Shown here in pieces: positions 1 through 53,337 of a stretch of DNA of 64,000 nucleotides. The stretch spans positions 284,198 through 348,197 of the forward strand of contig JALONL010000006.1 of NCBI GenBank assembly GCA_025454955.1. Direction: 5' to 3'. The position numbers and the translations under genes were made by a program. Position 1 is the stretch's first letter. The number at the start of each line of letters is the position of its first letter. This stretch comes from Bacteroidia bacterium. Its GTDB lineage: Bacteria > Bacteroidota > Bacteroidia > Palsa-965. Below the pieces are notes generated by a model that saw only the letters and a list, made by a program, of their open reading frames with translations, was not told the DNA's origin and did not search any database.

Positions 1-400
1 CTTCGTCGCTCAATCCCTCGCGCGATTCGATGTGACCGGGATTAAGCAGTATGCGTGTTTCGCTCGTAAGCCGCAAACCCGAGGGCAGCGCGGCAATAAG
101 AATTTCGCCGCGGGTGCAGAGGTAGTAGGCCGACATCCATTCCCAGAGCTCGAGTTGTTTTTCGGTCACTACCGGCTCGGGATCGAGAATATGTTCGATG
201 TATTTGGCGGCGTATTGGGGCGCATTTTCGTGAACTTTCCACACCACAGCCGCATACAGCTTGCTTTTGCCAAACTGCACCACCACACGCATTCCCGGCA
301 CCACGCTGCCGCTCATGCTTTGCGGTATGCGATAGGTGAACAGGTTGGGCAGTGCAAGCGGTAAAACAATATCGGCAAAAAGATCGGTGCGCTCGGCCAT
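1..400 (-). CDS. priA: Primosomal protein N' (PriA), N-terminal part; the gene continues beyond the window edge
   Basis: Minus-strand translation from the ATG at 398-400 reads MAERTDLFADIVLPLALPNLFTYRIPQSMSGSVVPGMRVVVQFGKSKLYAAVVW..., which matches the conserved PriA N-terminal 3'-DNA-binding region. It is absent from the ORF track only because it has no in-window stop. Confidence 0.75.
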   Translation of the reverse strand, partial: MAERTDLFADIVLPLALPNLFTYRIPQSMSGSVVPGMRVVVQFGKSKLYAAVVWKVHENAPQYAAKYIEHILDPEPVVTEKQLELWEWMSAYYLCTRGEILIAALPSGLRLTSETRILLNPGHIESREGLSDE

Positions 401-433
401 TGCACAAAAGTACGAAGCAATCGCTGTAATAAA

Positions 434-2017
434 TTATAATTGATAATCGGGATGATCGGGGAAGGGATACACTATGGCGTTGGGAATATTATGCTGCACA
501 TTGAAGCGCTGAAAAAACAGCGGATGAAATACACAATCGTCGCGGTCGGTGAGAATGAGATTGTCTTCGTTGAAATATTCGAAATCGGCTTCAATTACGC
601 CCGATGCTTCGTTGTAACGGCGCACACGGCCAATAATGCCAAGCTCGGCACAGAGCATACGGAAATTGTAGGGCGAGTATTCTTCGTTTTCCCACTGCGA
701 ACTGGTTACACGGGCCACACGGTCGAGGTCTTTGCCTTTAAACATCATGGGCAGGCCGGTAAGTGCGTTCAGAATTTTATCGGCGTTGTGGTGAATTTTC
801 TTGTACGAGTTAATTACCTCGGTAGCCAGCAACGATTGTACCGAATCGACCGAACTGGCTGCATCGCGCGAAGGGTTATCGGAGTAATAATGGTTATCGC
901 TGATGATGTTAAAAAACTTGTTGCATATAATAACCAGTTGCCGTGGCCGAAGCTGGGTGTGGCGAAGAATGAACACAAATGAATTTTCGCGCACACCTGC
1001 ACCGTTTATCAGTTCCTTGCCGAAGTAAGGTTCCCACACTTTCTTCATTACATCGGCCGGGCGTTCAAAATCAACCGTGTCGCTTTCTTTCCAGCGTGAG
1101 GTTTCCTTGAGGTGCATGTACCAGCGCCAGCACACAAAGCGCAGCAGTTCTTTGGGGCGCCAGTGCATAACCAGCGGATCGCGCACCACTTTAAGCGGGT
1201 TTGGAATAACCGAGGAAAGAAGATGCGGAAACACTTCGGCCGACATGAATACTTTAAGGTGCAGACCGCGGAAGCAATACTCGCCGTTAAACTCCGACGC
1301 AAATTCGATGAGTGCCGAAATGGCCGCCATCATGGCCGAATTGCCGGTAGGATAATCTTCTATGGAATCTATGGCAATAACGGCTTCGTCGGCTTTCGAA
1401 TGCTTGAGCACGGCTTCCTGCGCACGGCGGAATACTTCGGAATTGAGGCGGTCTTCGATGGTGTCGAACACTGCTTCTATGCCGCCAATGCCGGTGAATT
1501 TATTGACTAAACTCTGAATGATGTTGAGTACAATGCGCGATGGTGTGTTCTTCTTTTCATCGCTCACATCCATAAACTCGGCAATGCGTATTTCATCGTC
1601 CTTGCCGGCATACTCGCGGAAAATAAGCGCCCAGATTACGTATTTCCAGATGAGCCTTGTTTTATGCGTAGTATGCAGCGCATTTTCTTCGAGCAGGCGC
1701 GCCACTTTTTCGAGCACCACCTGGTACAATTGTGGTTCGTTTACGTCGATACTGCGGTAATTCTTACCATGCAAATCGGCAAACGAAAAGTATTCGATGA
1801 GCGATGATTTTCCCGAACCTCTGCGGCCTACAATTAAATACGTATTGCGGTCGAGAAGTTTGTTTTCAAAACGACGGTTGCGGAAGTAGTACTTCTCGTA
1901 ATTATTATCCAGCAAACGTTTTTCATCTTCACAACTGTTTTCACCAAATGGCTTAATTAATATGGTCATACAATTCTGTTCGTTTCCGGTTCGGCAGTTG
2001 GGTCCTGCAAACTGCAA
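434..2017 (-). CDS. P-loop NTPase of unknown function (Walker A GRRGSGKSS, Walker-B-like VIAIDSIED); KAP/STAND-like ATP-binding protein
   Basis: A 527-aa ORF. Walker A lies about 60 aa from the N-terminus (LIVGRRGSGKSSLIEYF) with a downstream hhhhD..ED motif. The true start is probably the internal ATG at 1969 (MTILIKPF...). It is co-oriented with, and immediately downstream of, the HTH-TPR gene. Confidence 0.6.
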   Translation of the reverse strand: MQFAGPNCRTGNEQNCMTILIKPFGENSCEDEKRLLDNNYEKYYFRNRRFENKLLDRNTYLIVGRRGSGKSSLIEYFSFADLHGKNYRSIDVNEPQLYQVVLEKVARLLEENALHTTHKTRLIWKYVIWALIFREYAGKDDEIRIAEFMDVSDEKKNTPSRIVLNIIQSLVNKFTGIGGIEAVFDTIEDRLNSEVFRRAQEAVLKHSKADEAVIAIDSIEDYPTGNSAMMAAISALIEFASEFNGEYCFRGLHLKVFMSAEVFPHLLSSVIPNPLKVVRDPLVMHWRPKELLRFVCWRWYMHLKETSRWKESDTVDFERPADVMKKVWEPYFGKELINGAGVRENSFVFILRHTQLRPRQLVIICNKFFNIISDNHYYSDNPSRDAASSVDSVQSLLATEVINSYKKIHHNADKILNALTGLPMMFKGKDLDRVARVTSSQWENEEYSPYNFRMLCAELGIIGRVRRYNEASGVIEADFEYFNEDNLILTDRDDCVFHPLFFQRFNVQHNIPNAIVYPFPDHPDYQL

Positions 2018-2054
2018 TATACAACAATGAAGGGGTAAAAGTCCAGTGTGCGTG

Positions 2055-3515
2055 TTATGCGTTGCAACGCATCAGCCATTTGTCGAAACGGATGAGTTCG
2101 TAACCGGCGGGGTTCCACCAGAAATCGTCTTCGTTGCGCCGCAAAAGTTCTATGCGGTGGGCTTCCTGTATATCAAGCTGTTTGAAGCCGAGATTGGAGC
2201 GGATAAGTTTGTTGAGCAGCAGCATAATGGTGCCCAATCGTTTATCGTTTGGCGTTTTATCTGTCTCTGGCCGACGAACCGAATAACGGAATGCGTTGAG
2301 GCGGTGGGCGGCCACATCCATCATTCCGCGTTCGAGATTGAGTTGCAGGTCGATGAGGAAAAGGCCGGGCATCCAGCCGCGGTGGTCGTTTACCAGATCG
2401 CCGCAGCGGGCAATCTGGTTGGCGCTGGCTTTGTAGGCTTTCTCTTCGAGGGCAATGGCGGCAGTAAGCAGTTCGAGCCGGGCCCTGAGCAGCGGAAACT
2501 GTGCGACCTTGCGGTTGCCAAGCGCCTGCGAAATAACCTGTGTGGCGGCAAGGTGATTGCCGTTTCTGAAATGAGCCAGCGCCAGCATTCGTGCAGCCTG
2601 AAACTGCTGCTCGTACAGGCTGTCGCTCATCTCCAGGGCCTGCTGCGCATACTCGGCAGCCTGTGCATTTTCGCCCTGCGCCAGTGCTATTCCCGAAAGC
2701 TCTATGCTTACTGCCACTACGTTGCTTTCGGTATGCAAAATCGGGCTCGAACGAATGAGCGAAAGCAGGTGGTGGCCGTGTTCGCCAGCTTCGGGAAAAC
2801 TGCGCAGGGTATTGTAAAAATTCATCGCCGAGAGGTGGTAGTAAAAGCTCATGCGGTTTGATGACGACGAGGATATTTTTTTACCCATTTCGTTAAGCCG
2901 CTGCATGCCTTTCGACTGGAAATCGGCCAGGGAAACTGATTGGATAAGCTCGGGAGTTAAGAGTTCGTAGTGCAACTGTCGTGCGCGAAGCACATCGGCC
3001 TGGCAATCGTGCAGTTGCATAATTTCGCGGCTGAGCTGGCGGAACGACTCTGCGTTTTGTTGTATGGCTGGAGTGTTGCGGCGCAAATCATTCAGCAGAA
3101 GTTGTTCGGAAAACAATTCGCTCTTACGGGCCACACGCAGCGTGCGTTCGATAAGTGCATCGGCTTCGTCAAAACAGTTTCTCGACTGAAGCAGATCGGC
3201 CTGGAGCAGCGCACGACGGCAATCGAACTGAGCCTGCAAAAAAGGCATCTCCTCTTCGTTTTCCTGATCGGTAAGCAGCAAGGCTTTCAGTATATCATCC
3301 TGCAAACGCTGGCATAAGTTGATGAACGATGAAATGCGCGAATGGCTGTAACCGATTTCTTTTGCTGCTGCTTCTTCGTCCTTTCCCTCCAGAAGGAGTT
3401 CAAATAACTGATCGCGTTTCAGTCGCTCGCGATTTCCGTTTACCTGAATAATCAGACGCACGATGCGTATTTCGTATTTACTGAGTGACTGGATGAGGTT
3501 AGACAGGCCGGGCAT
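2055..3515 (-). CDS. Transcriptional-regulator-like protein with an N-terminal HTH (sigma-70 region-4/LuxR-like) and a long TPR-like alpha-helical repeat region
   Basis: A 486-aa ORF. The N-terminus (AAAKEIGYSHSRISSFINLCQRL) has an HTH pattern. The remainder consists of repeated Leu/Ala-rich ~34-aa helical-hairpin units (LALAHFRNGNHLAATQVISQAL, AAEYAQQALEMSDSLYEQ...). Confidence 0.5.
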   Translation of the reverse strand: MPGLSNLIQSLSKYEIRIVRLIIQVNGNRERLKRDQLFELLLEGKDEEAAAKEIGYSHSRISSFINLCQRLQDDILKALLLTDQENEEEMPFLQAQFDCRRALLQADLLQSRNCFDEADALIERTLRVARKSELFSEQLLLNDLRRNTPAIQQNAESFRQLSREIMQLHDCQADVLRARQLHYELLTPELIQSVSLADFQSKGMQRLNEMGKKISSSSSNRMSFYYHLSAMNFYNTLRSFPEAGEHGHHLLSLIRSSPILHTESNVVAVSIELSGIALAQGENAQAAEYAQQALEMSDSLYEQQFQAARMLALAHFRNGNHLAATQVISQALGNRKVAQFPLLRARLELLTAAIALEEKAYKASANQIARCGDLVNDHRGWMPGLFLIDLQLNLERGMMDVAAHRLNAFRYSVRRPETDKTPNDKRLGTIMLLLNKLIRSNLGFKQLDIQEAHRIELLRRNEDDFWWNPAGYELIRFDKWLMRCNA

Positions 3516-3851
3516 GAAGTATATAGACTTAGGGGATATGCACGTTTCAGATGAACCTGTATATTTTACAGATTCAAATAGTTTTCAAATAAAGCGTGAG
3601 CAGTTGCGGGGCAACAGAAAGTACGTGAATACTTCAGGGTTATGTTACTGAGGAAGAATGCAGGGAATCGAGGTTAGTTTTGAATTATTACAGAGGTTTA
3701 GGTTGTTGAATCTTTTTGTAATCTTCTGCAAAGTACAGGTATGAAGAACCAAAAGCAAACTTTTTTACATCTTTTATCATATTATTTTTTTATCAGGAAG
3801 ATTAGATTTATTTAACCGATTTAGACGGTAGTTGACACAATTTTAATTATA

Positions 3852-5429
3852 TTACCACGTTACATAAATCACTTTTTCGCTCCACGGATAGCGTATAATT
3901 GAAATCGGCCAGGGCACTTTATCAATGAGCACATCAAACGAATCGCGTTCAATGAGCAGTTCCCAGCCATCGTGCCCGGGCTGTAAACGCCCTTTATGTT
4001 GGAGAAACATTTTCCGGAATGAAGGTACGGTAGATCGTTTCAGCAATTCCCAGGTTTGAATGGCGTGTTGCACGGCTTTATCGGCTTCGGCCACAAATTC
4101 CATAAAGCGGCTATGTTCAAACTGATGCCATGCAGGCAGCGGTGTTTCGGGAGAAAGCCCTACTAAGATTTTATTAAGCAATAGCTGATGCTCGTCGAAC
4201 GGATGCGGGGCTTCTTCTTCCTGTTCGCTGAGGTTTATTTCTTCGGGGTTGCCCCAGACAAGAAGTTGCAGCAGCACGGCTGCCTCGGCCTGCGCCTGTT
4301 CACTCACAAATTTTTTATTTTCAATATGCCCGGTGCGCGCCAGAAATGTGCTGATGAATGGATAAAGCAGTACTAATCCTGCGTTTTCAATTACATAACC
4401 GTCTTCATCGGGAATGAGTGGTGTTTCGGTTTCGGGCTTTACCGGTTTATAGGGTTCATCGGTTTGCTGCGCGTCAGGCCGTTTGGCCTGTAATTCCGCA
4501 TCAGTTTGCCGGATGAGTTGAATAAGCTCCTGCCATTGTGCAGCAGATAACTGAGCCGGGGAAACACCGTTTTCTTTTGCAGCGGCTGCAGTAATTTCAT
4601 TTTCAGAAAACCCATGTGCAGCCGCAATTTCAAGAAGCCGCGCAAAGGGTTTCGAATACGAAGGCGCGGGGATGGTTTCAATTTCCCTGCGCAGTATGTA
4701 AAGCACACCTGCCGGTGAAATTTCCGGCTCACGGCTTTTTACAAAAAGCACGGTGGCTGCAAACTCTGCCGCAGCATAAGCACTGCCTTCGCTGCGGAGG
4801 TAACTGCCAAGCAGTTTCACGAAATGGCGAAGGCCGCTATCGGTAAACAGTTGCAGAAAAAACTCCTCTTTGAGTTGCAAAGCCAGCCTGAGAAATCCGT
4901 TGTATTGCTTTTGTACGGCAAGTTCACGCAGCAATTGGGTCATGGCTTCCTTACCAGCCAGTTGACTCACAAGTTCCTGCAAACTCTGTTTCACGGCCGA
5001 GCGCCAGGGCAGCAAACCGCTCACCAGCAAATGCCATATTATTTCCTGTGTGCTGTAAATCCTGCTTTTGAGATGTACGGCAATTTCAATACTGTTGCCT
5101 TGTTCATCGGTATCATAAAGAACCACTTCCCTGCCCGCCTCTTCGCGCGCCTGCTGTACAAGTCGCTCCAACTGGCTTGCAAGAACAGTTTTAAACTGTG
5201 TGGCAAAAGTTTCGCTGAAATTCGATACTGTAAAACGCCCGGCATCAATCACTAACCTGTCGATGGTAAGAAACTCATCAGGCCCCACAAATTCATCGAG
5301 TACAGCCGAAACAGACCGGATAATTTCGTCCTTTCTATCCCGCAGCACTTCATCCTGAATAGTAATTCCCTGTTGCTGGTCGGGCACCTGCAACTCGATT
5401 TCAAAACGACGAATAATGTGATTGTTCAT
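3852..5429 (-). CDS. Hypothetical protein (525 aa) with no recognisable domain and an acidic central linker
   Basis: A long ORF with coding-like composition and no convincing overlapping alternative. An AT-rich putative promoter region lies upstream at 5430-5690. Confidence 0.5.
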   Translation of the reverse strand: MNNHIIRRFEIELQVPDQQQGITIQDEVLRDRKDEIIRSVSAVLDEFVGPDEFLTIDRLVIDAGRFTVSNFSETFATQFKTVLASQLERLVQQAREEAGREVVLYDTDEQGNSIEIAVHLKSRIYSTQEIIWHLLVSGLLPWRSAVKQSLQELVSQLAGKEAMTQLLRELAVQKQYNGFLRLALQLKEEFFLQLFTDSGLRHFVKLLGSYLRSEGSAYAAAEFAATVLFVKSREPEISPAGVLYILRREIETIPAPSYSKPFARLLEIAAAHGFSENEITAAAAKENGVSPAQLSAAQWQELIQLIRQTDAELQAKRPDAQQTDEPYKPVKPETETPLIPDEDGYVIENAGLVLLYPFISTFLARTGHIENKKFVSEQAQAEAAVLLQLLVWGNPEEINLSEQEEEAPHPFDEHQLLLNKILVGLSPETPLPAWHQFEHSRFMEFVAEADKAVQHAIQTWELLKRSTVPSFRKMFLQHKGRLQPGHDGWELLIERDSFDVLIDKVPWPISIIRYPWSEKVIYVTW

Positions 5430-5629
5430 ACGGGGTTAATGTGGCATAAAGATACAACGGCCGGGAGCCGATGTCAAGCCAAAAAATGTAATAATTTAAC
5501 TTTATCATGCTGATTTTCAAATCATTTAATTTCAGAAAAATGTAACCCGAAATCACTCATTTAAAGCAATTCATTCAATGTATCAAACACCTGTTTCATC
5601 TTATAATTTCGAGGTGCCGGGAAATGGTA

Positions 5630-5675
5630 AAATAAAGAGCCGGACATTCGGCCCGGCTCTTTGTATAAAAGCAAT
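5630..5675 (-). terminator. Putative Rho-independent terminator downstream of the HIT gene
   Basis: Minus-strand read: AAAGAGCCGGGC-CGAATGT-CCGGCTCTTT followed by ATTTTA. The hairpin sits directly after the HIT stop. Confidence 0.45.
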
Positions 5676-5689
5676 CTTGTATTAAGTGT

Positions 5690-6091
5690 TTACCCGGCCA
5701 GAAAGGCTTCGCTTATTTTACGTGCGGTTTCGGCAAGTTCTTCGGGCGAAGGTTTGAGTTTTTCGCGGGTAAAATTGATGTCGTTTATTTCGTTGAGCGG
5801 CACTAAGTGAATGTGTGCGTGCGGCACTTCGAGACCGATTACGGCCATTCCCACCTTGCGGCAGGGAATTACTTTTTTCACCGCTTTTGCTACCTCGCGG
5901 GCAAAGAGATGCAGTTCGGAATACAACTCAGTGTCGAGATCAAAAATCAGGTCGGTTTCCTGTTTGGGAATAACCAGCACATGACCCTGAGCCAGCGGAA
6001 ACACATCGAGAAACGCCAGGCAGTTGGCCGTTTCGGCTACTTTGTGCGAGGGAATTTCGCCGTTTACAATGCGGGTGAAAATGGAAGCCAT
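5690..6091 (-). CDS. HIT-family (histidine triad) nucleotide hydrolase
   Basis: A 133-aa ORF containing the HIT motif HAHIHLVP and the conserved GQ.V.H.HVH.IPK-like N-terminal region (AQGHVLVIPK). Confidence 0.85.
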   Translation of the reverse strand: MASIFTRIVNGEIPSHKVAETANCLAFLDVFPLAQGHVLVIPKQETDLIFDLDTELYSELHLFAREVAKAVKKVIPCRKVGMAVIGLEVPHAHIHLVPLNEINDINFTREKLKPSPEELAETARKISEAFLAG

Positions 6092-6564
6092 CAGCGCGAA
6101 ATATCTACCACTTCAAACTGCATCATGCCCGAAGGAACTGTTACATCGCACACATCGCCCACCTTGCGGCCAAGAAGTCCTTTGGCAATGGGCGAGTTGA
6201 TGGATATTTTGCCCGATTTAAGATCGGCTTCGTTTTCGGGCACCAGCGTGTAGCTCATCCTGGCGCCATTCTTGGTGTTTTTAACCGTCACTTTACAAAG
6301 TATCAGCACTTTGGAAGTGTCGAGCTGGCTTTCATCCACAATGCGGGCATTGCTTACCAGTTCTTCCAGTTTAGAAATTTTGAGCTCCAGCATTCCCTGG
6401 GCATCCTTGGCTGCATCGTATTCGGCGTTTTCAGATAAATCGCCTTTATCGCGGGCTTCAGCAATCTGACGGGAAATGCTCGAACGCTCTTTGGTTTTCA
6501 GAAAATGCAATTCGTCTTTCAGCTTGCGCAGACCCTCTTCGGTAACATAAGTAATTTGTGACAT
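6091..6564 (-). CDS. greA: Transcription elongation factor GreA
   Basis: A 157-aa ORF. MSQITYVTEEGLRKLKDEL...GDLSENAEYDAAKD... is the canonical GreA coiled-coil plus FKBP-like C-domain. Its start overlaps the HIT stop. Confidence 0.9.
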   Translation of the reverse strand: MSQITYVTEEGLRKLKDELHFLKTKERSSISRQIAEARDKGDLSENAEYDAAKDAQGMLELKISKLEELVSNARIVDESQLDTSKVLILCKVTVKNTKNGARMSYTLVPENEADLKSGKISINSPIAKGLLGRKVGDVCDVTVPSGMMQFEVVDISR

Positions 6565-6754
6565 ACGATTTAAGTGTATGTGAGTAACTCAATGGAAAGC
6601 AGAAAGAGAATCCCGGTGTTTTTACACACCGGGACTCTCTTCTTGATTTACAAATATACACATTCAGGTAAAAAAGTCAAGTCCTTAATGTGTCAAAATT
6701 AACATCGGGGAATATTTAATCTATTGAATAACAAATACATACAAACTACCCGGA

Positions 6755-9700
6755 TTAATACGCATCCAGATCAAGCGGACGCATTACCCCAAACCATTTC
6801 AGTATCTTCTCTCCCACCCCGGGAACTTCCACATGAATAATATATAAACCGCTGGCCAACGGTATACCGGCCTGATTTTTCAAATCCCAGTCGAGCGAGG
6901 TAATCTGCGAATCGTCTTTGGTGTAGGTTCTTACCAGCGTGCCGCTTACGGTGTAAATCCTTATTCTGCACTTATCGGGCAGGTTGGTGATTTTTACGCG
7001 GTTGTCGAGCTGGTTTTTCTCGTAGCCCGAATAGGCGTAGTAAGGATTGGGCACCACGTTAATCAGGTCGAGCGCATTAACGGCGGCGTTTTGGTTTTGG
7101 GTAGCCACTTTCAGGTTTCGGGTATTGAAAGTGTACATCGGGTTGTTTCTGTTTTGAACGGGGGTGGCGGTGCCGGCGCTGTCGGTGGCCATTATCACGT
7201 TTCCGCCTGCGGGATTCATGCCGTTGTAAAAACGCTTGTAGGGCTTGGCCACACGCAGGCGCACACGGGCATCGCAGGGCAGCGGCGAACCGTTGTAATT
7301 CCAGTTGTGTGCAGCATAATCGCGGTCGAGCATCGGAATGCTTACCCACATGGCATCGGCCCAGATTTCGCGGCGGTACGTATTGGCCAGCGGCGATTGC
7401 ATGATGTCTATCATCGTTTTGCCCATGTCGTAAGCCGGAATGTCTCTCAGCCTGCCGTCGAGCGAGGGATCGATGCCGCTGAACACCGCGTTTCCGTTGT
7501 GGCCGAATACGTAGAGATAATGCATTCCGCCCCAGAGCACATTGTTAAACTGCGTCATTTCGTTGGCGCTCGGATTCCAGAGCATATCGCGGCCGTTTTC
7601 GGCAGCAAGGCCGGTGTTTTCGGAAAAGGCCATGTTGAGCCGCTCACCGGTTTCCACGTTTATGGCATAGCCCGGAAACCAGCCCATGCCCGTGCTGCTG
7701 ATGAGGTTGGCTTCTGCCGCATTGTTCTGCGTGCCCTGCTTGTCAACCGAAGGCGAATTGCGCAGCGTAAATGCTTCGCGCTGGCCCAGATTCATCTGCT
7801 TCACCGGGCCCGACTCAAACACAGGCACCCGCGTCCATTTCGATTTATCGTTCGTGAAAACGATGTCCACGCTGGCAATGTTCTCCAACTTGTTTGCCGA
7901 AAGCGATACCGCATTGTTCAGCGCAGGCCCGGCCGGATTGCAAATAGTGGTGGCCGAGGGCGAAGGATTAAGCGCACACATGCGATACGGTGCCCAGGTG
8001 CCGTCAATCAGTTTTTCAAATTCCTGCTGCTCGTCGAACCACGTTCCGCCGTACTGAAACTGCCGTTCATCGTCCCAGAAAATCCGGCAGGGATCAGTAG
8101 TATCGCCCCGCACCGTGCCCGAACGAATCCAGTTGCCAGGCTGTTGCCCGTCGCGGTCTTTCACGCCACTCAGCCAGCGTTTGGTTTCATCGCTGAATGT
8201 GATGTTGGCTTCCAGCACACCGTTTTTATCGGGGTTAAACTGCCAGCCCGGATTCTGTACCTGGCTCACGGTTATGGATAAACCAAGATCAGGAATCAAC
8301 TGCTCGTTGGCAAAAATGCTGGCCATGGAAATGGCACGGTCTGATACGGCCACCACACGGTTTACCGGAGTGGTTTGACGAAGTTCCCATCGTGCAGTAT
8401 CGGTTACAGTATATTTTGAATACGGGTTATTAATCAGTCGCAATTCAAAATCGCCCTCGGGCACGTTAAGCGGGTCAATCACTTTTATATTCACCGGCCC
8501 GCGTCCTGCCGCATAGGTAATCATATCGGCCCTGCTGGTGCCGCCATTGTTTACGGTGGCTGCATTTAAAATGGCAAGTTCCGATGCCGGGGTGAGATCA
8601 ATAACCTGATTGCCGTTTCCGCAACCTTCCACCCGCGTAATTTCAGGCCCTGAGCCATACTGCGAGCTTTGGAATGTGCCACCCAGTTCGGGCGAAGGAA
8701 TGTGCGGAATGGCAGTATATTTTACAATGTTTCCGCGACCGGCCAGATATGGCTTTTTCTGCCCGATGTTCGACGGTTTGTTCGGATTAAGCGTATCGAA
8801 CGATTCTTCGAGGTATTTTAAATATTCATTCTGTGCATAAGCGCGCACAGTGTAGTAATACGTTTTATGATTCACCAAACGCCGGTCGCCGCTGGCAAAA
8901 GCATCTTCACGAATGCTGAACGAATGTTGTATGCCTTTATCGTCGGCCTGCAAGGTCATATCCATTGGCACTTCCATTCCAAGCGACGCGTCGAGAGTGC
9001 GGTTTACCAGTTGGGCAATTCCGTTGCGCACATCGCACTGGGCCACTAAGCGGGCTTTGTCGGCATCATACACATCCGTTGGGCTTACCGTTTCGTCTTT
9101 CAGTTGAAAAATCTGATAGCCTTCAAAGTTGTAGGTGGTATCAAGTCCTGCTCCGCCGTAGCGTGTAACCAGATTGTGATAGGCCACAATATTCGCATCG
9201 GTGGTGCTGAAATTTCCGAGGTAATTATTGCTTGAAGGCGAATTCTTGAGGTAAATCACAATTTCTTTATCGAGTTCCTGAATATCCATATCAGGCGCAC
9301 GCGGGCCTTCGAGTGTGCGGAAACAGGAATTGAAAAGTGTTTGTGCCTTATCGTCGGTTACACGCAGCAGTTCAACCGATGCCAGCGGCCCGCCCGAGGC
9401 GGCACGGGCCCATACGGCACCTACGGTGATATAATTTACTTCACCCGGCTCCAATGTAAATGGGCCGGCCGAGGTGAGCATACGGCGGTCGTCGGGCGTA
9501 TTACCGGCCGTTACTTCTGTCCAGGGAGTAGTGCTGAATTGCGGATCGGTAGAACCCGGAAACATGAAATTGGCCGGTTGCGATCCACCATAGCCATTGC
9601 CTCCATACGTAATGGGTGTGCCGTCTTTCCAAAAGCCGCTCAGGTAGTTGTAATAATGCGTGGCATTTTGCGGCTCGCCAATTACCGACTCGTTATTGTT

Positions 9701-10837
9701 ATAATACACATATTTCGACATAATGATCTGCTCGCCCGTTTCGTCAGTCATTCCATCGCGGTCATTGTCCTCCCCATCAATCGCATCGGCCAGCGGCCCT
9801 TCGAAAAAGTCGAGACCAAATGCCGGAGGATTGGCGCCATAAGTGCCCAGCGAGGGTTGCGGGTTTCCTCCGTCGTTCGACACGCCGTTGTAAGTATAGC
9901 CCAAACCACGCTGTACATCGCAACCCACGTAATCGTCGAGGTAAAATCCCAGATCAGAATCCACCCATTGTCCGAAATACGTTTCTTCCAGTCTTACTGT
10001 ACTCCGGTTAATGATCTGATAGGTGTAAAAAGTCATGTTATTAATTTCATCGTTTGTGCCAAATGCAAAAGCCTGCGCACGTATTTCGAGGCCAATGGCT
10101 TCGCCGCCGGTTTGCGTGTGTATATTGCCACGATCGTTAAATACCCACCATAAATTCTGATCGCCAAACAACTGGTTTTTCGAGCAGTTGGCCTGGCCGG
10201 TTAAGTTAAATGCGGGATACTCGCATTGCTCCCACTCGTAAACGCCGTTGTTATTGTGGTCGGCAAACGGAGCCAGAAACTGCAACTGACCTAAAGCCAC
10301 ATTACCGTTGCCCGGCCAGTTGATAATATTGTTTGGCACAGTGTAGCCGATATAAAGATTTGGGTTTTCGCACCAGGCGGCAAAATCTTCCACCTCCTTT
10401 CTCGAGATTTCATAAATTTTATTGAACTGATTGCAGATGTCTGCATCTGTAGAAGCATTGTTATCGAGCGGGCCTGGAAAGAAATCGTTTCCTGCCTGAC
10501 GATACGTTTGTGCAGCCACTTTCAGTTGTCCGCCCGCATCCAATCCGCCGATCCACAGCGACGATGCAAACGAAGAGTGGGCACGGCTGCCTTTGGGAAT
10601 TTCGTAACGCGGCGAGTTGGTAAGATCCCACCACATATCACCACCATTGTAAATGGTAGTGCGCACGTTGTTTATGTCGAGATCGGTTTGTGCCGAAGCC
10701 GGTGTGCAGGACGAGGCCACTCTCAGGTCGGAAGCCGGTTGCGCCATCATACGGTTTCTTCCGGCGCCGCCCTCACGGGCGTGTGCAGCAAAACCCATCA
10801 GGGCAAAGGCAATAATTGTTGGGAAATAATTCTTCAT
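6755..10837 (-). CDS. Large secreted surface protein (1360 aa) with signal peptide and C-terminal T9SS type-A sorting domain; paralog of 12290..16393
   Basis: The N-terminal signal (MKNYFPTIIAFALMGFAAHA) and a C-terminal ~90 aa (VVPNPYYAYSGYE...IRIYTVSGTLVRTY...LASGLYIIHVEVPGVGEKILKWFGV) match the Por_Secre_tail pattern (PNP..., SGLYfv). The protein aligns along its whole length with the second giant ORF. Confidence 0.7.
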   Translation of the reverse strand: MKNYFPTIIAFALMGFAAHAREGGAGRNRMMAQPASDLRVASSCTPASAQTDLDINNVRTTIYNGGDMWWDLTNSPRYEIPKGSRAHSSFASSLWIGGLDAGGQLKVAAQTYRQAGNDFFPGPLDNNASTDADICNQFNKIYEISRKEVEDFAAWCENPNLYIGYTVPNNIINWPGNGNVALGQLQFLAPFADHNNNGVYEWEQCEYPAFNLTGQANCSKNQLFGDQNLWWVFNDRGNIHTQTGGEAIGLEIRAQAFAFGTNDEINNMTFYTYQIINRSTVRLEETYFGQWVDSDLGFYLDDYVGCDVQRGLGYTYNGVSNDGGNPQPSLGTYGANPPAFGLDFFEGPLADAIDGEDNDRDGMTDETGEQIIMSKYVYYNNNESVIGEPQNATHYYNYLSGFWKDGTPITYGGNGYGGSQPANFMFPGSTDPQFSTTPWTEVTAGNTPDDRRMLTSAGPFTLEPGEVNYITVGAVWARAASGGPLASVELLRVTDDKAQTLFNSCFRTLEGPRAPDMDIQELDKEIVIYLKNSPSSNNYLGNFSTTDANIVAYHNLVTRYGGAGLDTTYNFEGYQIFQLKDETVSPTDVYDADKARLVAQCDVRNGIAQLVNRTLDASLGMEVPMDMTLQADDKGIQHSFSIREDAFASGDRRLVNHKTYYYTVRAYAQNEYLKYLEESFDTLNPNKPSNIGQKKPYLAGRGNIVKYTAIPHIPSPELGGTFQSSQYGSGPEITRVEGCGNGNQVIDLTPASELAILNAATVNNGGTSRADMITYAAGRGPVNIKVIDPLNVPEGDFELRLINNPYSKYTVTDTARWELRQTTPVNRVVAVSDRAISMASIFANEQLIPDLGLSITVSQVQNPGWQFNPDKNGVLEANITFSDETKRWLSGVKDRDGQQPGNWIRSGTVRGDTTDPCRIFWDDERQFQYGGTWFDEQQEFEKLIDGTWAPYRMCALNPSPSATTICNPAGPALNNAVSLSANKLENIASVDIVFTNDKSKWTRVPVFESGPVKQMNLGQREAFTLRNSPSVDKQGTQNNAAEANLISSTGMGWFPGYAINVETGERLNMAFSENTGLAAENGRDMLWNPSANEMTQFNNVLWGGMHYLYVFGHNGNAVFSGIDPSLDGRLRDIPAYDMGKTMIDIMQSPLANTYRREIWADAMWVSIPMLDRDYAAHNWNYNGSPLPCDARVRLRVAKPYKRFYNGMNPAGGNVIMATDSAGTATPVQNRNNPMYTFNTRNLKVATQNQNAAVNALDLINVVPNPYYAYSGYEKNQLDNRVKITNLPDKCRIRIYTVSGTLVRTYTKDDSQITSLDWDLKNQAGIPLASGLYIIHVEVPGVGEKILKWFGVMRPLDLDAY

Positions 10838-12289: not shown

Positions 12290-15200
12290 TTAATAAGCAT
12301 CGAGGTCAAGCGGACGCATTACGCCAAACCATTTCAGGATTTTTTCACCCACACCGGGCACCTCTACGTGGATAATGTAAAGACCGCTGGCCACAGGAAT
12401 ATTGGCCTGGTTCTTCAGATCCCAGTCGAGTGATGTAATCGGTGAGTCTTTGGTGAATGTACGTATCAGTGTACCGCTTACCGTGTAAATGCGAATTGTA
12501 CACTTATCGGGCAGGTTGGTAATCTTGATACGGTTGTCGAGCTGGTTGGTCTCGTAACCCGAGTACGCATAGTACGGGTTGGGCACCACGTTAATCAGAT
12601 CAAGTGCATTCTTGGCAACCGTCTGATCTGATTTGGATGTTTTCAGATCGCGGGTGGTGAATGCATACATCGGGTTGTTAGCGTTCTGAATAGCAGGCTG
12701 TCCGGGGCCACCGGCCGTGTCGGCAGCATTAATAATGTTGCCGCTCAGGTTATTGATACCTGTGTAGAAACGACGGTAGGGCTTGGCTACACGCAGACGT
12801 ACTTTTACGTCGCAGGGCAGCGGTGAGCCGGCATAGTTAAAGGTGTAGCTTGCGTAGTCGTTATCCAGCACCGGAATGTTTACCCACATAGCATCAACGA
12901 AAATTTCGCGGCGCTCGGTGTTCACATTGGTAGAGGTGAGGATACGCTGCATGGTCACACCACGGTCGTAGGCCGGAATATCGCTGAGCTGACCATTCAG
13001 GTTCGGGTCAGAGTTACCCGAGTATCTGCGGTTGCCATTGTGGCCAAACACGTAGATATGGTGGAAACCACCCCAGAGAAGATCGCCAAAGGTTGTGCTA
13101 ACGTTTGCGGTGGGATTCCAGAGCATGTCGCGGCCGTTTTCGGCACCGAGTGCTGTGTTTTCACCAAAAGCCATATTGAGGCGCTCGCCTGTTTCTACGT
13201 TAATGGCGTAGCCGGGGAACCAGCTCATACCCGTTGCGGCTGTAAGATCGCCGGTAGCGTTGTCATAGCCCGGATCACCGGCTTTACGACCCCACTGATC
13301 TACTGAGGGAGAGTTGCGAATGGTAAACGCTTCGCGCTGACCCAGGTTAAGCTGACGAACAGGTCCAACCTCAATTACCGGCACACGGGTCCACTTCGAG
13401 CGGTCGTTGGTAAATACAACGTCCACGTTGGAAAGGAAACTCATACGTGTCTGGGTGAGGAGAGCCGCAGTAGTCGGGAATGCCGGACCGGCATCGTAGC
13501 AAATAGTTGTTTGATTGGGTGTCGGGTTGGTGGCGGCAAGGCGATAAGGAGCCCAGGTACCGTCAACCACACCTTCATATACACCATCTCTGTCTATAGG
13601 TACGTTTGCCTGTTCTTCGTCGTCAAGCTGAGCCTGACAGGGTCCCTGAGGTCCGGGGTTTGTACCCGCACGAATCCAGTTGAAAGCGTTCTGTCCGTCG
13701 GTATCCACAATACCCGAGAGCCAGCGGCGTGTTGTCTCACTGAAAGTCATGCTTGACTCAAGGTAGCCGTTGCGGTCGGGGTTGTTTTGCGAACCCGGAT
13801 CCTGCACCTGCGAAATGGTAATTGACATACCCAGATCAGGCAGAAGCTGTTCGTTGGCAAAAACACTTACCATGTTAATGGCACGCTCAGAGGTGGCAAT
13901 TACCGTGGGCGATGAAGCATTGGTTACATCAATCAGTTGCCAGTTGGCAGTGGTAGCCACAGAGAAATTACTGTACGGGTTGTTGATGAATTTCACCTGA
14001 TAATCACCTTCGGGTACGTTCAGCGGGTCGATCACTTTTACGTTAATCGGGCCACGGCCGTTTTCGTAGGTAATTTCGTTTAAGCGGCTGGTACCACCCT
14101 GATCTACTGAGGTCTGAGCCATAATGGCATCAATAGAGGCCTGGGTAAGATCAAGTACGTTGTTACCGTTACCACAACCTTCAATACGGGTAATTTTCGG
14201 ACCTGAACCATAAGATGAATTCAGACCGGTTCCGCCAAGTTCGGGTGAAGGAATGTGGGGAATTACCGAATACACACGCACGTTCTTACGACCTGCAAGG
14301 TAAGGCTTCTTCTGGCCAATGTTTGAGGGCGAAAGCGGGTTGAAAGGATCGTAGGTTACATCGTCGTAAGTAAGGTAACGGTTGTAAGAATACGACAACG
14401 CCATGAAGTAGTACGTCTTGTGGTTTACCAAACGACGGTCGCCAGCAGCAAACGCATCTTCGGTAATGCTGAACGACTTCACGATGCCACCATCTTCAGC
14501 AATCAGGGTCATGTCCTGCGGAACATCAGCGTTAAGTGCTTCGTTACGGTTCAGGTTCACAAGCTGGGTAACGCCGTTACGAATATCGCACTGGGCCACC
14601 AAACGGGCACGGTCGGGATCGTAAAGGTCGGCGGTGGTTACAGACTGATCTTTCAACTGGAAGATCTGATAACCTTCGAAGTTGAAGGTGGTATCGAGCG
14701 GTGAACCCACGAGGGCGCTGTAGGTAATTGAAGGGTCAGTAGCTTCGTAAGACTCAAGGTAGTTGTTGCTGGTGGGCTTGTTGCTCAGGTAAAGCACTAC
14801 CTGACGGTCGAGTTCCTGGAAGTCCATATCCGGAGCATCAGGGCCATCGAGTGTACGGAAGCAGGCATTGAACAGGCTCTGGGCTTTGTCGTCGGTAACG
14901 CGGAGCAGTTCTACAGAAGCTGCAGGACCACCGCTACCGGCACGGGCCCAAACCGCACCTACAGTTACATAGTTTACCGCACCGGGCTGGAGGGTGAAGG
15001 GTCCGGCCGACTGGATGAAGCGACGGTCGGCAGGAGTATTGTTCTCGGTAATTTCAGACCATACCACCGGGTTGTTGGGATCGGTATCGCCGGGGAACAT
15101 GAAGTTGTAGGGCTGCGCGCCACCATAACCGTTTCCGCCATAAGTTACAGGAGTACCGTCTTTCCAGAAACCGGTAAGGTAGTTGTAAATGTGAGTACCG

Positions 15201-16393
15201 TTTTCAGGGTTACCGGTAACCGAGAAGTCGTTGTTGTAGTAAATAAACTTAGCCATGATGATCTGCTCACCGGCTTCGTCGGTCACACCGTCACGGTCAT
15301 TGTCCACTCCGTCAAACGGATCGGCGGCAGGTCCTTCGAAGAAGTCCATACCAAACGCAGGCGGGTTGGCACCGTAAGTACCCAGGCTGGGCTGCGGGCT
15401 GCCACCGTCGTTTTGTGTACCGTTATAGGTATAACCCAAACCACGTACTACGTCGCAACCAACATAGTCATCGTTGTAAAGACCAAGGTCAGAATCCACC
15501 CACTTACCGAAATAAGTATTGTTGAGTGTAATTGACGAACGGTTAATTACCTGATAGGCGTAGAAGGTCATGTTGTTGATCTCGTCGTTGGTGGCAAAGG
15601 CAAAAGCCTGAGCGTGAATTTCGAGACCAATCGGGTTGGCACCTGTTTCAGAGTGTACGTTACCTTTATCGTTGAATACCCACCAGAGAGTCTGGTCGCC
15701 ATAAAGCTGGAATTTTGTACATCCCAGGCTGTTGGTAAGGTCGTAACCCGGATATTCACCGGCTGCCCATTCATACACACCGTTCTGGTTAATATCGGCA
15801 AACGGAGCCAGATAACGGCCCTGATTCAGCGATACATCACCGTTACCCGGCCAGTTCTGGATGGTAAGCGGCACGGTATAACCCGGAAATGCAGAAGGAT
15901 CGGCATACCATGCGGCATAGTCTTCTACTTCCTTACGGGTAATTTTCCAGTGACGATCGTAAGCCACGCACTGATCGGCTTCGATAGATGCCGTAGTGGT
16001 ATCGAGCGGACCGGGCCAGAAGTCGTTACCTGTCTGGCGATAGGTCATAGCAGCCACTTTAAGCTGGCCACCCGCATCAAGACCACCAATCCAGAGCGAT
16101 GCAGCGAATGAGGAGTGAGCACGGCCGCCTTTGGGAATTTCGTATTTGGCGTTGCTCAGATCCCACCACATATCGCCGCCACCAAGGATGGTTGTGCGTA
16201 CGTTGTTGATGTCAAGGTCTGTTTGTGAAGTAGCCGGTGTGCAGGACGACGCAAGTTGTTGCGACGAGTTGCCACGGTTTCCTGAATATCCCTGGCGGTT
16301 GCCAGAAGCACCGTTTTCACGGGCTCCGGCGGTAACCGCAAATGCCATCGCAGCTGCAACAGGGAGAATGTAGTATGGACGCTTGGTATTCAT
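12290..16393 (-). CDS. Large secreted surface protein (1367 aa) with C-terminal T9SS type-A sorting domain; paralog of 6755..10837 (PorU-like role possible but unproven)
   Basis: It has a signal peptide, the same internal motifs as the first giant (SSCTPA.SQTDLDINNVRTTI, WIGGLDAGGQLKVAA, DxDxDG-like Ca-binding stretch DGVDNDRDGVTDE) and a near-identical C-terminal sorting domain. It lies directly upstream of the PorV-like gene, as in porU-porV arrangements. Confidence 0.7.
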   Translation of the reverse strand: MNTKRPYYILPVAAAMAFAVTAGARENGASGNRQGYSGNRGNSSQQLASSCTPATSQTDLDINNVRTTILGGGDMWWDLSNAKYEIPKGGRAHSSFAASLWIGGLDAGGQLKVAAMTYRQTGNDFWPGPLDTTTASIEADQCVAYDRHWKITRKEVEDYAAWYADPSAFPGYTVPLTIQNWPGNGDVSLNQGRYLAPFADINQNGVYEWAAGEYPGYDLTNSLGCTKFQLYGDQTLWWVFNDKGNVHSETGANPIGLEIHAQAFAFATNDEINNMTFYAYQVINRSSITLNNTYFGKWVDSDLGLYNDDYVGCDVVRGLGYTYNGTQNDGGSPQPSLGTYGANPPAFGMDFFEGPAADPFDGVDNDRDGVTDEAGEQIIMAKFIYYNNDFSVTGNPENGTHIYNYLTGFWKDGTPVTYGGNGYGGAQPYNFMFPGDTDPNNPVVWSEITENNTPADRRFIQSAGPFTLQPGAVNYVTVGAVWARAGSGGPAASVELLRVTDDKAQSLFNACFRTLDGPDAPDMDFQELDRQVVLYLSNKPTSNNYLESYEATDPSITYSALVGSPLDTTFNFEGYQIFQLKDQSVTTADLYDPDRARLVAQCDIRNGVTQLVNLNRNEALNADVPQDMTLIAEDGGIVKSFSITEDAFAAGDRRLVNHKTYYFMALSYSYNRYLTYDDVTYDPFNPLSPSNIGQKKPYLAGRKNVRVYSVIPHIPSPELGGTGLNSSYGSGPKITRIEGCGNGNNVLDLTQASIDAIMAQTSVDQGGTSRLNEITYENGRGPINVKVIDPLNVPEGDYQVKFINNPYSNFSVATTANWQLIDVTNASSPTVIATSERAINMVSVFANEQLLPDLGMSITISQVQDPGSQNNPDRNGYLESSMTFSETTRRWLSGIVDTDGQNAFNWIRAGTNPGPQGPCQAQLDDEEQANVPIDRDGVYEGVVDGTWAPYRLAATNPTPNQTTICYDAGPAFPTTAALLTQTRMSFLSNVDVVFTNDRSKWTRVPVIEVGPVRQLNLGQREAFTIRNSPSVDQWGRKAGDPGYDNATGDLTAATGMSWFPGYAINVETGERLNMAFGENTALGAENGRDMLWNPTANVSTTFGDLLWGGFHHIYVFGHNGNRRYSGNSDPNLNGQLSDIPAYDRGVTMQRILTSTNVNTERREIFVDAMWVNIPVLDNDYASYTFNYAGSPLPCDVKVRLRVAKPYRRFYTGINNLSGNIINAADTAGGPGQPAIQNANNPMYAFTTRDLKTSKSDQTVAKNALDLINVVPNPYYAYSGYETNQLDNRIKITNLPDKCTIRIYTVSGTLIRTFTKDSPITSLDWDLKNQANIPVASGLYIIHVEVPGVGEKILKWFGVMRPLDLDAY

Positions 16394-16458: not shown

Positions 16459-19400
16459 TCAGAAGTCAAGCATGATGCCCAGACGAATACGGCGGGGGAT
16501 GCTGTAGAATGTCGGATCAGCCATTTTCACAGAATACAGATCGCGGAACGATTGGGGATCGTTTTGCGCAGCGATGAGCGCCTGAGTGCTGGCATCAGAC
16601 AGGTAGCCATCGTCGTTAGCGTTACCGGTGTAGCGGTAAACGTTAAGTACGTTTTGAGTGTTGAGGATGTTGAGCACCTGGAGGTAGATGTTCAGGGCAG
16701 CCACTTTCTGGTTGTCGCCTGAGCCCCAGGTAAGATCTACGTTCTTGTCGATACGAAGGTCGGCACGAACCTGCCAGGGCAGACGTGAACCGTTAATCAG
16801 ACCATCGAGCAGCGGACGGGCAGCCACACCGAACTGAGCTTCGGGAGTAGCGTTCGACTGGCGGGTGTAGGGTGTACCAGAACCGGCACGCAGTACCAGG
16901 TTGGCACCTACGTTGTCGAACACACGCACTTCGCGTTTGTTTTTGCCCATGGTCCACACGGGGCCACGGTAGTTGGCACCCGAACCAAAACGGTAGTCGA
17001 TGTTGGTAACGATGGCATGACGCTGGTCGAAGCTGAGCGGCAGGGTGGTGCGCAGGTTGGGCTGGCCGGCTGCTACGAGGTTCTGAGCTTCGGTGGCACC
17101 TGAACCGGTACCATCGGCAAACTGCAGGGTATAGCTGGCGGTAAGCTGTACGCCACCGGTACGACGGAGGTCATAAGCCACGGTGAAACCTTTTACTGTA
17201 CCGAAGTCGATGTTACCATAAGTAAGGTAGTTCGACGGGTAAGCAAACTGAACAGCCACTACCTGAATCATGTTTCGGAGTTCGCGGTAGAAACCAGAGA
17301 TGGTGATGGCTGAGTTCTTACGCTCGTTCAGGGTTTGTGTAAAACCAAGCTCGTAGTCGGTGGTGCGCTGCGGCTGGAGGTTCGGGTTGTTGTTAAACAA
17401 ACCTACACGGTTCTGAATGTAGAGGTACTGAATCGGGTCGAGACGGAAACCGTCGGTGGGACGCTGGGTAAGTACATCGTAGTGAGCAAAGAAGTTGGCT
17501 TCTTCCGAAATCGGGAACGCAAAAGCAATACGCGGCATAATGTTGAGCTGGGGCTCATAGTCGCGGAATGATTTGGCATTTACCACAGTCTGGCTGGGAT
17601 CAACCAGGTAAGGAGTAATACGGCCGGTTGAGGTAGCCTGGGCAATAAGAGAAACGTCAGAGATTTCGTTACCCTGAGCATTGTACCAGGTGTTCTCATC
17701 GCGGTAACCTACTACTGCGGTGGGGTTGTTCAGGTCGTTTACATATACTACGTAATCGCTGCCCATGTTGGTGGGGTGAGAGAAGTTTGTGGCTTCCGAC
17801 ACAGTTTTGGTTTCGTAGAATACATAAGGATCGCGGAGTACCTGCTGGTTGGCATCGAAACGGTCGATACGAACACCCACGTTGAACTTAATGTCTTTGA
17901 AGTCGAATTTATCCTGAATATAACCGGCCATGTAAATGGGGCGGAAAGAACCGATGGTGCGGCTCAGGTTACCATTGGCATCGGTGCCGGTGAGGAAATC
18001 ATCGAACGAAGGATTGCCTTTGATTTTTTTGCCGGTATGATCGTAACCGTAATAAGAAACGATGTTGCTGCCGTCGAGCAGAAGGTCTTCGGCGCTGAAC
18101 ATGTTCAGATTAAAGAAGGTCGGATCCATGTTGTCGATATCGATCCACTCGGTACCGGTGGCACTCAGGCCCATTGCTTCGCGCACAGAGCGGTCGAAAT
18201 AACGCTGCTGGCTGCCATCGTAAAGACGCTCGTAGAGGTAAGCGTTGTAGGTTCCGTAGTTTACTTCGAGGGGGTTGGCCAGATCAAGCTGTGTAAGGTG
18301 GAAGTTGGCCAACTGACGCATACGTGTCCAGAGGTCGATGGCGCTCAGACTGAATTCACTTTCGTCGCGCTGCTCGAACTCGAAACCAACCTGAATGGCG
18401 TGGTTCTTAATATCGGCAGAGAAGCTGGTGAATACGCGGAACTGACGACGATCCTGCTTGAGGTAACCCGGGAACTGACGGCCGGTATTCCACCAGAGCG
18501 AGTAAACGCTGGGGGCGCGTGAGCCGTTAAGCAAACCGAGAAGAGCCGGTACCTGATCGTAATTCTGAATCTGGCCGGTGAAATTATCGAATACGTAATC
18601 GGTGTAGTTGGTACCGAGCGGGTTCGAAGAGTTTGAACCGTCGAAAACAAGTGCCGAATCAGCGAAAGCCTGCTGTACAAAACCGCTTACCACATCGCCA
18701 TTGGGCAGGGTAACGGTTCCGGGCTGGAAGAAACGGGTTTTGTACTGGGTGAATTTACCCACATGTCCATAACGGAAATAATCGTCGCGGTGGGTATCAT
18801 CTTCGCGGGTAAAGGTGTAACGTGTGTAACCTACCTGCAGGGTATAGAACGCGTTCTTGATATTGGAAGCTGATTCCTGGTTGGTATTCCCGAAACGCTG
18901 CGTAAGACGGGCATATACACGCCAGGTGTTCTGGGTAACCTGCGGGTTGTTTACCGGGTTGAAAAGTGCATATTCATAGGTAAACGAGTGTTCGCGGCTG
19001 TAGTCGATAGAACCACCGAAGGTAATATTCAGGTTGGCGGTGGGTTTGAAGTCGATTTTGGCATTCAGACGCAGTGCACGTTCGGCCACGTTCTGGCGGG
19101 CCGCAATTTTTTCGAGATCATTCATACGAACGAATTCCGAGTTACGTACAAAGCCGGTGCCCAGAGGAGCCGGACGAAGCGGATTGGCTTCGAGGTTACG
19201 AAGCACATCGTCTTTTACCTTATATACACCAATAGCCGAAGGGTTGGCATCGCGCTCAGACACACCTTCACCGGAAAGAATAAAGCCAAGCACAGGCGAT
19301 TTGTTGCCTGCCGAGTCTTTACGCATCCAGATGGGGCCGCCCACGCTGAAACCTACGAAGTTGTAGCCAAAATCGTCGAGTACTTCGGAAGTGATTAATT

Positions 19401-25313: not shown

Positions 25314-25387
25314 AGTGTGCGGGTAAAATTATCCGGTAAAAACAGGCGAAGGTTTTGGCAATGGGTCACGGGAAAGCAAACGCAGAA

Positions 25388-36325: not shown

Positions 36326-36927
36326 CCGGCAGTTTGAACGGTTTGATTGACATTGCGGATGAGTTCCACAAACTGCTGATCGAAGAACCAGATGAATTCG
36401 GGAGTAAAATTCATCTCCTGGGTGATGAAGCTTGATTTAAAATTAATGGCGAATGTGTCGCGGTAAATCTGATTTCGTAAAAACCCGCGCAGTGCTTCCC
36501 CGCTCATTCGCTGCAACTGAGGCACATCGCCATAAATTTTCACATTCATGCGGTTGGCAAATTCGGTAACCACCGAAGCCGAAATGATATTATCCATTTC
36601 AAGCAGAATGGCATCCTGCATTTCGGCATTTCCGGCCAGGGCTGCGGGCAGGGCGGTCTGGTACAAATGCCCGGCTTCAGAATATGAGAAAACAAGGCAG
36701 CAGGTGCCCGGCAACTCGCCTTTTACGTGCGTAATAAGCAGGCAGACATCTTCCTTGTCATTCACCGGAAAATCGTCGAGTTCGGAAGCCTGTCGTAAAC
36801 GAAAATCCGACTCATCCACACGAATTTCCTTCTTCATGATTGCACTCATCGACACGGCAGCGCGGCCAAGACCGGCACGCGCCATCTGCATGGCGAAAAG
36901 AAATTCGGGAGTAGAAAACGACATCAT
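36322..36927 (-). CDS. CheC/CheX-like chemotaxis phosphatase-domain protein (tentative)
   Basis: A 201-aa ORF inside the che operon, with a weak CheC-like E..N segment (LLEMDNIISASVVTEF). The assignment rests mainly on context. Confidence 0.4.
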   Translation of the reverse strand: MMSFSTPEFLFAMQMARAGLGRAAVSMSAIMKKEIRVDESDFRLRQASELDDFPVNDKEDVCLLITHVKGELPGTCCLVFSYSEAGHLYQTALPAALAGNAEMQDAILLEMDNIISASVVTEFANRMNVKIYGDVPQLQRMSGEALRGFLRNQIYRDTFAINFKSSFITQEMNFTPEFIWFFDQQFVELIRNVNQTVQTAG

Positions 36928-36939
36928 ATTCAGAGGCGA

Positions 36940-38652: not shown

Positions 38653-38669
38653 GAAAATTTATTGACCTG

Positions 38670-39047: not shown

Positions 39048-39058
39048 CGTGTATGGGT

Positions 39059-39619: not shown

Positions 39620-39626
39620 GTCCGGC

Positions 39627-47860: not shown

Positions 47861-47892
47861 GAAGTTTCCGTTTACATTTTCATTGCACAGTT

Positions 47893-53270: not shown

Positions 53271-53337
53271 TGGATAGGAATTTACATGTGAAGTCTCCCC
53301 GGAAACAGATAAATCTGAAAAATCAATTCACGATGAT

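Follow-up and report, generated by a model that had tools for sequence, protein, structure and literature searches.

The three genes at the left end of a 64,000-nucleotide stretch from a Bacteroidia bacterium (GenBank assembly GCA_025454955.1, contig JALONL010000006.1, positions 284,198 to 348,197; hereafter the window) are tied to an extracellular contractile injection system (eCIS), not to defence, by the first of them, gene A, which judging from its sequence encodes a tape-measure protein of the Afp14/Pvc14/Alg14 family. Genes A, B and C all lie on the minus strand between priA and the HIT/greA pair, where an earlier note on this DNA had placed three co-oriented open reading frames (ORFs); coordinates are collected in Table 1. 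We think it probable that the region is a composite of three things: a functional but orphaned eCIS tape-measure gene (A), a lineage-specific accessory with tetratricopeptide repeats (TPRs; B), and an independent Sll1717-family AAA+ ATPase (C). The eCIS would then be dispersed in this lineage, with the tape-measure gene between HIT and priA, the cargo-loading ATPase and DUF4157 cargo genes 41 kb away, and the structural core (sheath, tube, baseplate) presumably encoded outside the window.

Gene A had been described as a 525-aa protein without a detectable domain. Its match to Pfam family PF19268 (CIS_TMP) covers every profile position (1-463 of 463; E = 2e-76) and scores 258.6 bits, where the cut-off is 27.8; a profile made from 87 tape-measure proteins of canonical eCIS loci matches it at E = 1e-118. 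PF19268 is present in all 15 gene A homologues found, several of which are named "contractile injection system tape measure protein" by NCBI, and likewise by JGI. Total lengths in a family alignment (alignment A3) range from 482 to 612 aa and vary in the central region only, so that conserved N-terminal (~1-230) and C-terminal (~345-525) domains enclose a centre of variable length, the layout expected of a ruler. The C-terminal domain carries the conserved motifs NAGLVLL..PF and LPWPISIIRYPW, and it also matches annotated tape-measure genes in plasmid-borne Serratia and Aureibacter clusters. A sequence search of the PDB with gene A returned nothing significant, and viral contigs scanned with the A and B profiles held no relatives. 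The gene is intact in at least 11 genomes, with a ratio of nonsynonymous to synonymous substitution rates (dN/dS) of 0.12-0.23 and dS often >1; intactness and purifying selection over such distances speak against a decaying relic.

In characterised eCIS, the tape measure occupies the tube lumen during assembly, its C-terminal domain binds the baseplate or spike, and particle length is set by it. Afp14 and Alg14 are such length rulers (PMC6899500; PMC8894135; bioRxiv 10.64898/2026.05.27.728243), and a coefficient of about 0.22-0.23 nm per residue has been published (bioRxiv 10.64898/2026.05.27.728243). At that rate the 525 aa of gene A would correspond to a particle about 115-120 nm long. On plasmid pAT3 of Aureibacter tunicatorum (locus L174, 1150-12681), a protein annotated as a contractile-injection-system tape measure reaches 3,843 aa, some seven times what is usual, and its gene is clustered with those for VgrG, PAAR, gp25, DUF4255 and sheath; a very long particle would follow, provided that the ruler relation applies.

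The usual setting of such genes was reconstructed from a metagenome scan with gene A, which gave 80 loci with distant relatives (23-38% identity); their neighbours were clustered and cluster representatives scanned with Pfam. Such loci typically run from gp25 (PF04965) through three proteins of 800-1400 aa, the tape measure and an AAA ATPase of ~450 aa (PF00004) to eCIS_core (DUF4157) proteins. Large proteins at the baseplate position (Afp11-13) lie upstream in 38 of the 41 distant loci with upstream sequence, with gp25 further up; the three clusters of these large proteins have no Pfam match, and their identity as baseplate or fibre proteins is taken from position. Downstream sequence is available for 51 of the distant loci, and an AAA ATPase gene is present in 40 and an eCIS_core gene in 39. 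An annotated Afp/PVC-type cluster of Serratia marcescens has the order VgrG/Pvc8, gp25, two large proteins, tape measure, ATPase, Pvc16. Gene A, by contrast, stands outside any eCIS cluster, with HIT and greA upstream and B and C downstream.

Two further parts of the usual module are nevertheless in the window, 41 kb from gene A. The AAA ATPase gene at 46424-47860 matches a profile of ATPases that adjoin tape-measure genes at E = 2.5e-123, and its product is 35-38% identical to the ATPase encoded upstream of A in two other loci (L013 and L014). The large DUF4157 protein encoded directly after it also matches the eCIS_core cluster (cluster 2) of the distant tape-measure loci. In the literature, it is the Alg15 ATPase that brings DUF4157 cargo into the tube (PMC6899500; PMC8894135; bioRxiv 10.64898/2026.05.27.728243), and the cargo of AlgoCIS consists of DUF4157 proteins (PMC8894135). 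With an ATPase and DUF4157 gene of this kind so far from A, the eCIS genes of this genome appear to be dispersed. The module (46424-52770) is adjoined by a TonB-dependent receptor gene, and small ORFs without Pfam matches follow the DUF4157 gene at 52755-56935.

Gene B encodes a TPR protein of a large unnamed family. Its AlphaFold2 model is all-helical (mean predicted local distance difference test score, pLDDT, 70), and Foldseek matched it to the TPR solenoids of LGN/Pins, Rap, APC subunits and a STAND TPR domain (E = 5.6e-5 to 1e-3; TM-score 0.35-0.47). The single-sequence Pfam match to TPR_16 stays below its cut-off (23.4 vs. 32.7). A word-based search yielded 11 relatives and an exhaustive profile search 1496; 332 of these have E <= 1e-30, and nearly all of them are ~485 aa long and match over the full length. 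Pfam scans of 100 family members found TPR_12 in 40, TPR_2 in 36 and TPR_MalT in 23, and no families other than TPR ones. An N-terminal helical domain of ~85 aa and an invariant C-terminal motif, WNPAGYELIRFDKW, are conserved, and dN/dS for the gene is 0.06-0.13.

The protein had been read as a helix-turn-helix (HTH) plus TPR regulator, and here the TPR half stands while the HTH half lacks statistical support. No HTH family was matched by Pfam in B or in the 100 family members, and the N-terminal profile of B matched no HTH protein in the PDB. In profile-profile comparison with hhalign, the probability was only 12% for a LuxR set and 0.2% for an XRE set, each compiled by hand. By eye only, the classical Ala5/Gly9/Ile15 pattern of an HTH can be laid over residues 47-66, and a likeness to the LuxR "LTxRExEVL" helix is seen at residues 11-23; we regard both as leads rather than findings.

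Position suggests what B might do. It follows the tape-measure gene in at least three or four distinct gene settings in Bacteroidota: the clade of the window, L013/L014, L008 and L170. The order in L013 and L014 is toxins, eCIS ATPase, a 474-aa protein, A, B, C, priA, and L170 has two baseplate-position genes directly before A-B. Gene B was not found in the 51 distant tape-measure loci with downstream sequence. Within a subgroup of Bacteroidota, B has thus kept company with the tape-measure gene, and it is most likely an eCIS-specific accessory. Its product might regulate, using a MalT-like TPR sensor, or might serve the tape measure as a protein-binding adaptor or chaperone. The genes upstream of the eCIS ATPase in L013 (2-3265) and L014 (2-2867) are of polymorphic-toxin type, with Ntox47 and RES domains, and are followed by strings of small ORFs that resemble immunity genes. 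Elsewhere, in L171 (829-7808, minus strand), a stand-alone B-family TPR gene lies beside a divergent cluster that encodes a 1130-aa protein with a Tubulin_2 domain, a 691-aa protein and a DUF350 protein.

Gene C belongs to a different context. It matches the NCBIfam model NF047389 (Sll1717 family) at profile positions 1-452 of 454 with 153 bits (cut-off 75). It has more than 426 homologues of ~510 aa, ~40% identical across phyla, in Bacteroidota, Cyanobacteria, Chloroflexota, Acidobacteriota, Planctomycetota and some Proteobacteria. When 24 homologues that span several phyla are aligned, 69 columns are invariant, and these include GRRGSGK of the Walker A sequence GRRGSGKSS and the D-x-x-E of the motif AIDSIED, both pointed out in the earlier note (the second as DSIED). 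The reading of C as a 527-aa NTPase has to be revised: the TTG at 2017 that gives this length lies inside the conserved promoter-like motif TTGTATATTGCA, and orthologues are called from the ATG at 1969, for 511 aa. The fold appears to resemble STAND and ORC/Cdc6 ATPases, and no sequence-level relative of C was found in the PDB. Its dN/dS, 0.01-0.03, equals that of greA and priA in the same genomes.

In about 75 loci of Cyanobacteria, Chloroflexota, Acidobacteriota and Proteobacteria, outside the Bacteroidota subclade, C occurs without A or B. Its neighbours there are housekeeping genes (aminoacyl-tRNA synthetase, P-II, TetR regulator, citrate synthase, malate dehydrogenase and polynucleotide phosphorylase). 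Clustering the neighbours in 80 loci brought out no universal partner, only synteny specific to each lineage. C thus looks like a gene independent of the eCIS, and its place beside B and priA like one more case of lineage-specific synteny. In two acidobacterial lineages (L029, 902-3370; L069, 8921-11527) the ATPase of the Sll1717 family carries a Hanks-type Ser/Thr kinase domain fused to its N-terminus, which points to a signalling role; C is probably an ATP-driven signalling switch. A literature search for "sll1717" returned no papers.

Two better-known classes of NTPase, to which the earlier note had compared the locus, were considered for C, and neither finds support in sequence profiles. 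As a STAND NTPase it scores poorly (nSTAND3, nSTAND6 and nSTAND1 at E = 0.02-0.25 and 11-15 bits, against cut-offs of ~27), and a repeat sensor domain is not on its chain; the TPR protein is the product of a separate gene, B, absent from the roughly 75 other C loci. As a KAP NTPase it has no KAP_NTPase match at E <= 1, and the hydrophobic insertion is not seen in the model. The NACHT and NB-ARC models likewise stayed below threshold.

An anti-phage role, in which the trio or C by itself would be a system for defence or conflict built on a STAND-, KAP- or Gabija-like ATPase, strikes us as very improbable, and the idea can be set aside. There are some pointers in its direction: PADLOC gives a weak match of C to GajA (E = 8e-6) and still weaker ones, among them one to a candidate model, NCBIfam gives a weak match to an "anti-phage protein", BrxC, Avs and RdrA are among the fold neighbours of C, its distribution across phyla is patchy, and distant relatives termed HypX (23% identity) occur on enterobacterial plasmids. 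However, the GajA match covers only positions 9-130 of a 670-position profile, all of these PADLOC and NCBIfam matches are confined to the P-loop and far below the family cut-offs, and neither A nor B has any match in PADLOC-DB 2.0; PADLOC found no defence system in the trio. C has no effector domain, its dN/dS (about 0.02) is that of greA and priA, and its neighbourhoods are housekeeping genes in stable synteny rather than defence islands. The trio itself is conserved synteny in its clade and not a variable island, and A is a structural eCIS protein. As for HypX, the relative of C (over residues 8-353) is encoded at L176, 4986-7055, on Citrobacter freundii plasmid NZ_OW849211.1. It is found on 79 enterobacterial plasmids, mostly non-mobilizable; sizes listed for ten of them are about 110-124 kb, and the single region inspected shows it among phage-like genes.

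The earlier note had also treated the three genes as a unit. They are one by adjacency only, and within a single Bacteroidota clade. Nine loci keep greA, HIT, A, B, C and priA in this sequence, with A only 43-65% but C 92-95% identical across them, and A-B-C-priA is retained in L013/L014. B evolves 4-5 times faster than C. Given that A-B and C occur apart elsewhere and that they evolve at unequal rates, the recurring pair is A-B, and C is most simply a neighbour.

The intergenic sequences suggest separate transcription. The AT-rich region noted earlier upstream of B is borne out as a spacer of 336 nt with 33-40% GC. The A-B spacer is always long (336 to about 1270 nt), and an alignment of seven orthologous spacers from the window clade reveals a conserved Bacteroidetes-type promoter-like block at about 3781-3728. 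A, B and C are each preceded by a promoter-like sequence of their own; separate promoters, as proposed before, are thus probable, and from these motifs the three genes look separately transcribed. Within the leader of B, a second conserved block (Table 1) contains two hairpins, AAGTA/TACTT and GTTGC/GCAAC. RNAalifold predicts 12 pairs there, five of them changed on both sides, with only two sub-lineages represented; the compensatory changes are UA<->CG exchanges between these two. The block may act as an RNA leader, or it may be a palindromic operator. Rfam, searched with positions 1-6800, left it unmatched and returned nothing beyond a chance small RNA at E = 0.3.

Several observations weigh against the composite reading. 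Pfam scans of about 45 window proteins, and baseplate-position cluster profiles run against all six frames, revealed no gene for sheath, tube, spike or baseplate in the 64-kb window or in the 10 kb to its left; that this genome has a complete eCIS is our assumption, and its sheath, tube and baseplate genes would be either elsewhere or absent. Some B-family genes have no tape-measure gene beside them: L171 has a lone one and L173 a tandem pair. The B-C gap is only 14-85 nt in every genome that has both genes, the A-B-C order survives long divergence, with C still 71% identical, and a functional link between B and C must accordingly be kept in view.

The missing structural genes would be accounted for if A and B were the remnant of an eCIS cluster, its structural genes deleted and A either exapted for use outside the particle or in the process of being lost. 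Baseplate-position genes stand directly upstream of A-B in L170 and L008, in the place that greA-HIT takes in the window clade, and L170 shares the downstream markers FA_hydroxylase and DsbH with the window. We consider this history unlikely, however, in view of the purifying selection that has kept A intact and of the intact eCIS ATPase and cargo genes in the same window, whose persistence is sensible only if particles are still made.

The short, conserved B-C gap and the stable A-B-C order, in the clade and in L013/L014, would instead suit a split STAND-like switch, with B as TPR sensor (possibly with an HTH) and C as AAA+ NTPase, that controls eCIS expression or assembly, including the tape-measure gene, in the manner of a divided MalT/LAL/AfsR regulator. 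The fold of C, the MalT-type TPR matches in 23 of 100 B-family members and the GerE- and BTAD-type regulators known as eCIS neighbours (PMC8213781) are all in keeping with it. Yet C occurs without B in about 75 loci and B without C in L008, L170, L171 and L173, a conserved promoter-like motif separates the two genes, C is constrained like a housekeeping gene and B is not, and no HTH has been demonstrated in B. We therefore hold such a switch to be improbable. A bolder version is that the eCIS is split into separately transcribed modules in a subgroup of Bacteroidota, with the tape-measure gene retained next to a dedicated control pair, B as TPR sensor or adaptor and C as AAA+/STAND-like ATPase, that gates particle assembly or length in an ATP-dependent way; this seems to us quite doubtful, but if true it would be the first such eCIS checkpoint described and would supply the first function for the Sll1717 family.

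The composite reading has consequences of its own. As a rule an eCIS locus is detected, and also engineered, as one operon; separated parts under purifying selection would mean that the system can be modular, and cluster-based detection could miss systems dispersed in this way. The TPR family that recurs after the tape measure is a candidate eCIS regulator or chaperone, and little is known of either role in Bacteroidota. The Sll1717 family, about 40% identical across phyla, constrained at the level of greA and sometimes fused to a kinase, has no published function.

Table 1. Features of the locus and of the distant eCIS module, in window coordinates.
Feature	Position	Strand	Description
Gene C	434-1969	-	511 aa from ATG at 1969; Sll1717-family AAA+ P-loop ATPase
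B-C spacer	1970-2054	-	strongly conserved in clade; promoter-like motif TTGTATATTGCA
Gene B	2055-3515	-	486 aa; predicted all-helical TPR protein
A-B spacer	3516-3851	-	336 nt, AT-rich; from base composition and alignment of 7 orthologous spacers
Conserved leader block of B	3598-3642	-	~45 nt, two short hairpins
Gene A	3852-5429	-	525 aa; CIS tape-measure family, PF19268
priA	start ~400	-	runs leftwards from the trio
Terminator-like hairpin	5637-5654	-	after HIT; divides A from the upstream housekeeping genes
HIT	5690-6091		upstream of A
greA	6091-6564		upstream of A
AAA ATPase, eCIS cargo-loading type (Afp15/Alg15 position)	46424-47860	+	478 aa; PF00004
eCIS_core (DUF4157) protein, candidate cargo/toxin	47893-52770	+	1625 aa; PF13699, E = 5e-21

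The remainder of the window contains several other gene groups. Two paralogues of ~1360 aa (6755-10837 and 12290-16393, both minus strand) are 66% identical and have a signal peptide and a C-terminus like that of type IX secretion system substrates, with no Pfam domain; a 360-aa protein is encoded between them, a TonB-dependent receptor gene (16459-20106) adjoins, and all are conserved across the clade. Two adjoining genes for adenylate/guanylate cyclases occupy 23184-26890 (minus strand), a 7TMR-DISM sensor domain being encoded in one of them, and an insertion sequence transposase (DDE_Tnp_1_6/DUF772) lies nearby at 27611-29167. A chemosensory cluster at 35450-42859 (minus strand) consists of CheR, a 201-aa ORF, a CheA-CheW fusion (Hpt, dimerisation, HATPase and CheW domains), a 186-aa ORF, a methyl-accepting chemotaxis protein with a HAMP domain and an OprB-family porin.

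Compared with known systems, gene A resembles Afp14, Pvc14 and Alg14 in its full-length profile match and in its conserved termini around a variable centre, and its homologues hold the afp14 position, between the baseplate/fibre genes and the AAA ATPase gene. It differs in lying apart from structural genes, ATPase and cargo module, flanked by housekeeping genes, and in being followed by a TPR gene and a Sll1717-family ATPase gene, neither of which is found in the 51 distant loci with downstream sequence.

GerE/LuxR-type and BTAD regulators are known neighbours of eCIS genes (Geller et al. 2021, PMC8213781). Like these and the MalT/LAL regulators, B adjoins eCIS genes and appears separately transcribed, and the TPR region of part of its family resembles the MalT-type sensor. 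It differs in that no GerE, BTAD or other HTH model matched and in having no NTPase domain on its chain; a protein-binding adaptor is equally possible.

C appears structurally similar to the archaeal AAA+ ATPases SSO1545 and PAB2304, to ORC/Cdc6 and to STAND ATPases. Its conserved C-terminal half (LRHTQxRPRQ, PFPDHPDY) is unique, and it differs from classical STAND proteins in that the repeat sensor domain is not on its chain. It is with the Sll1717 family (NF047389) that C agrees over its full length, the Walker A and Walker B-like residues being invariant.

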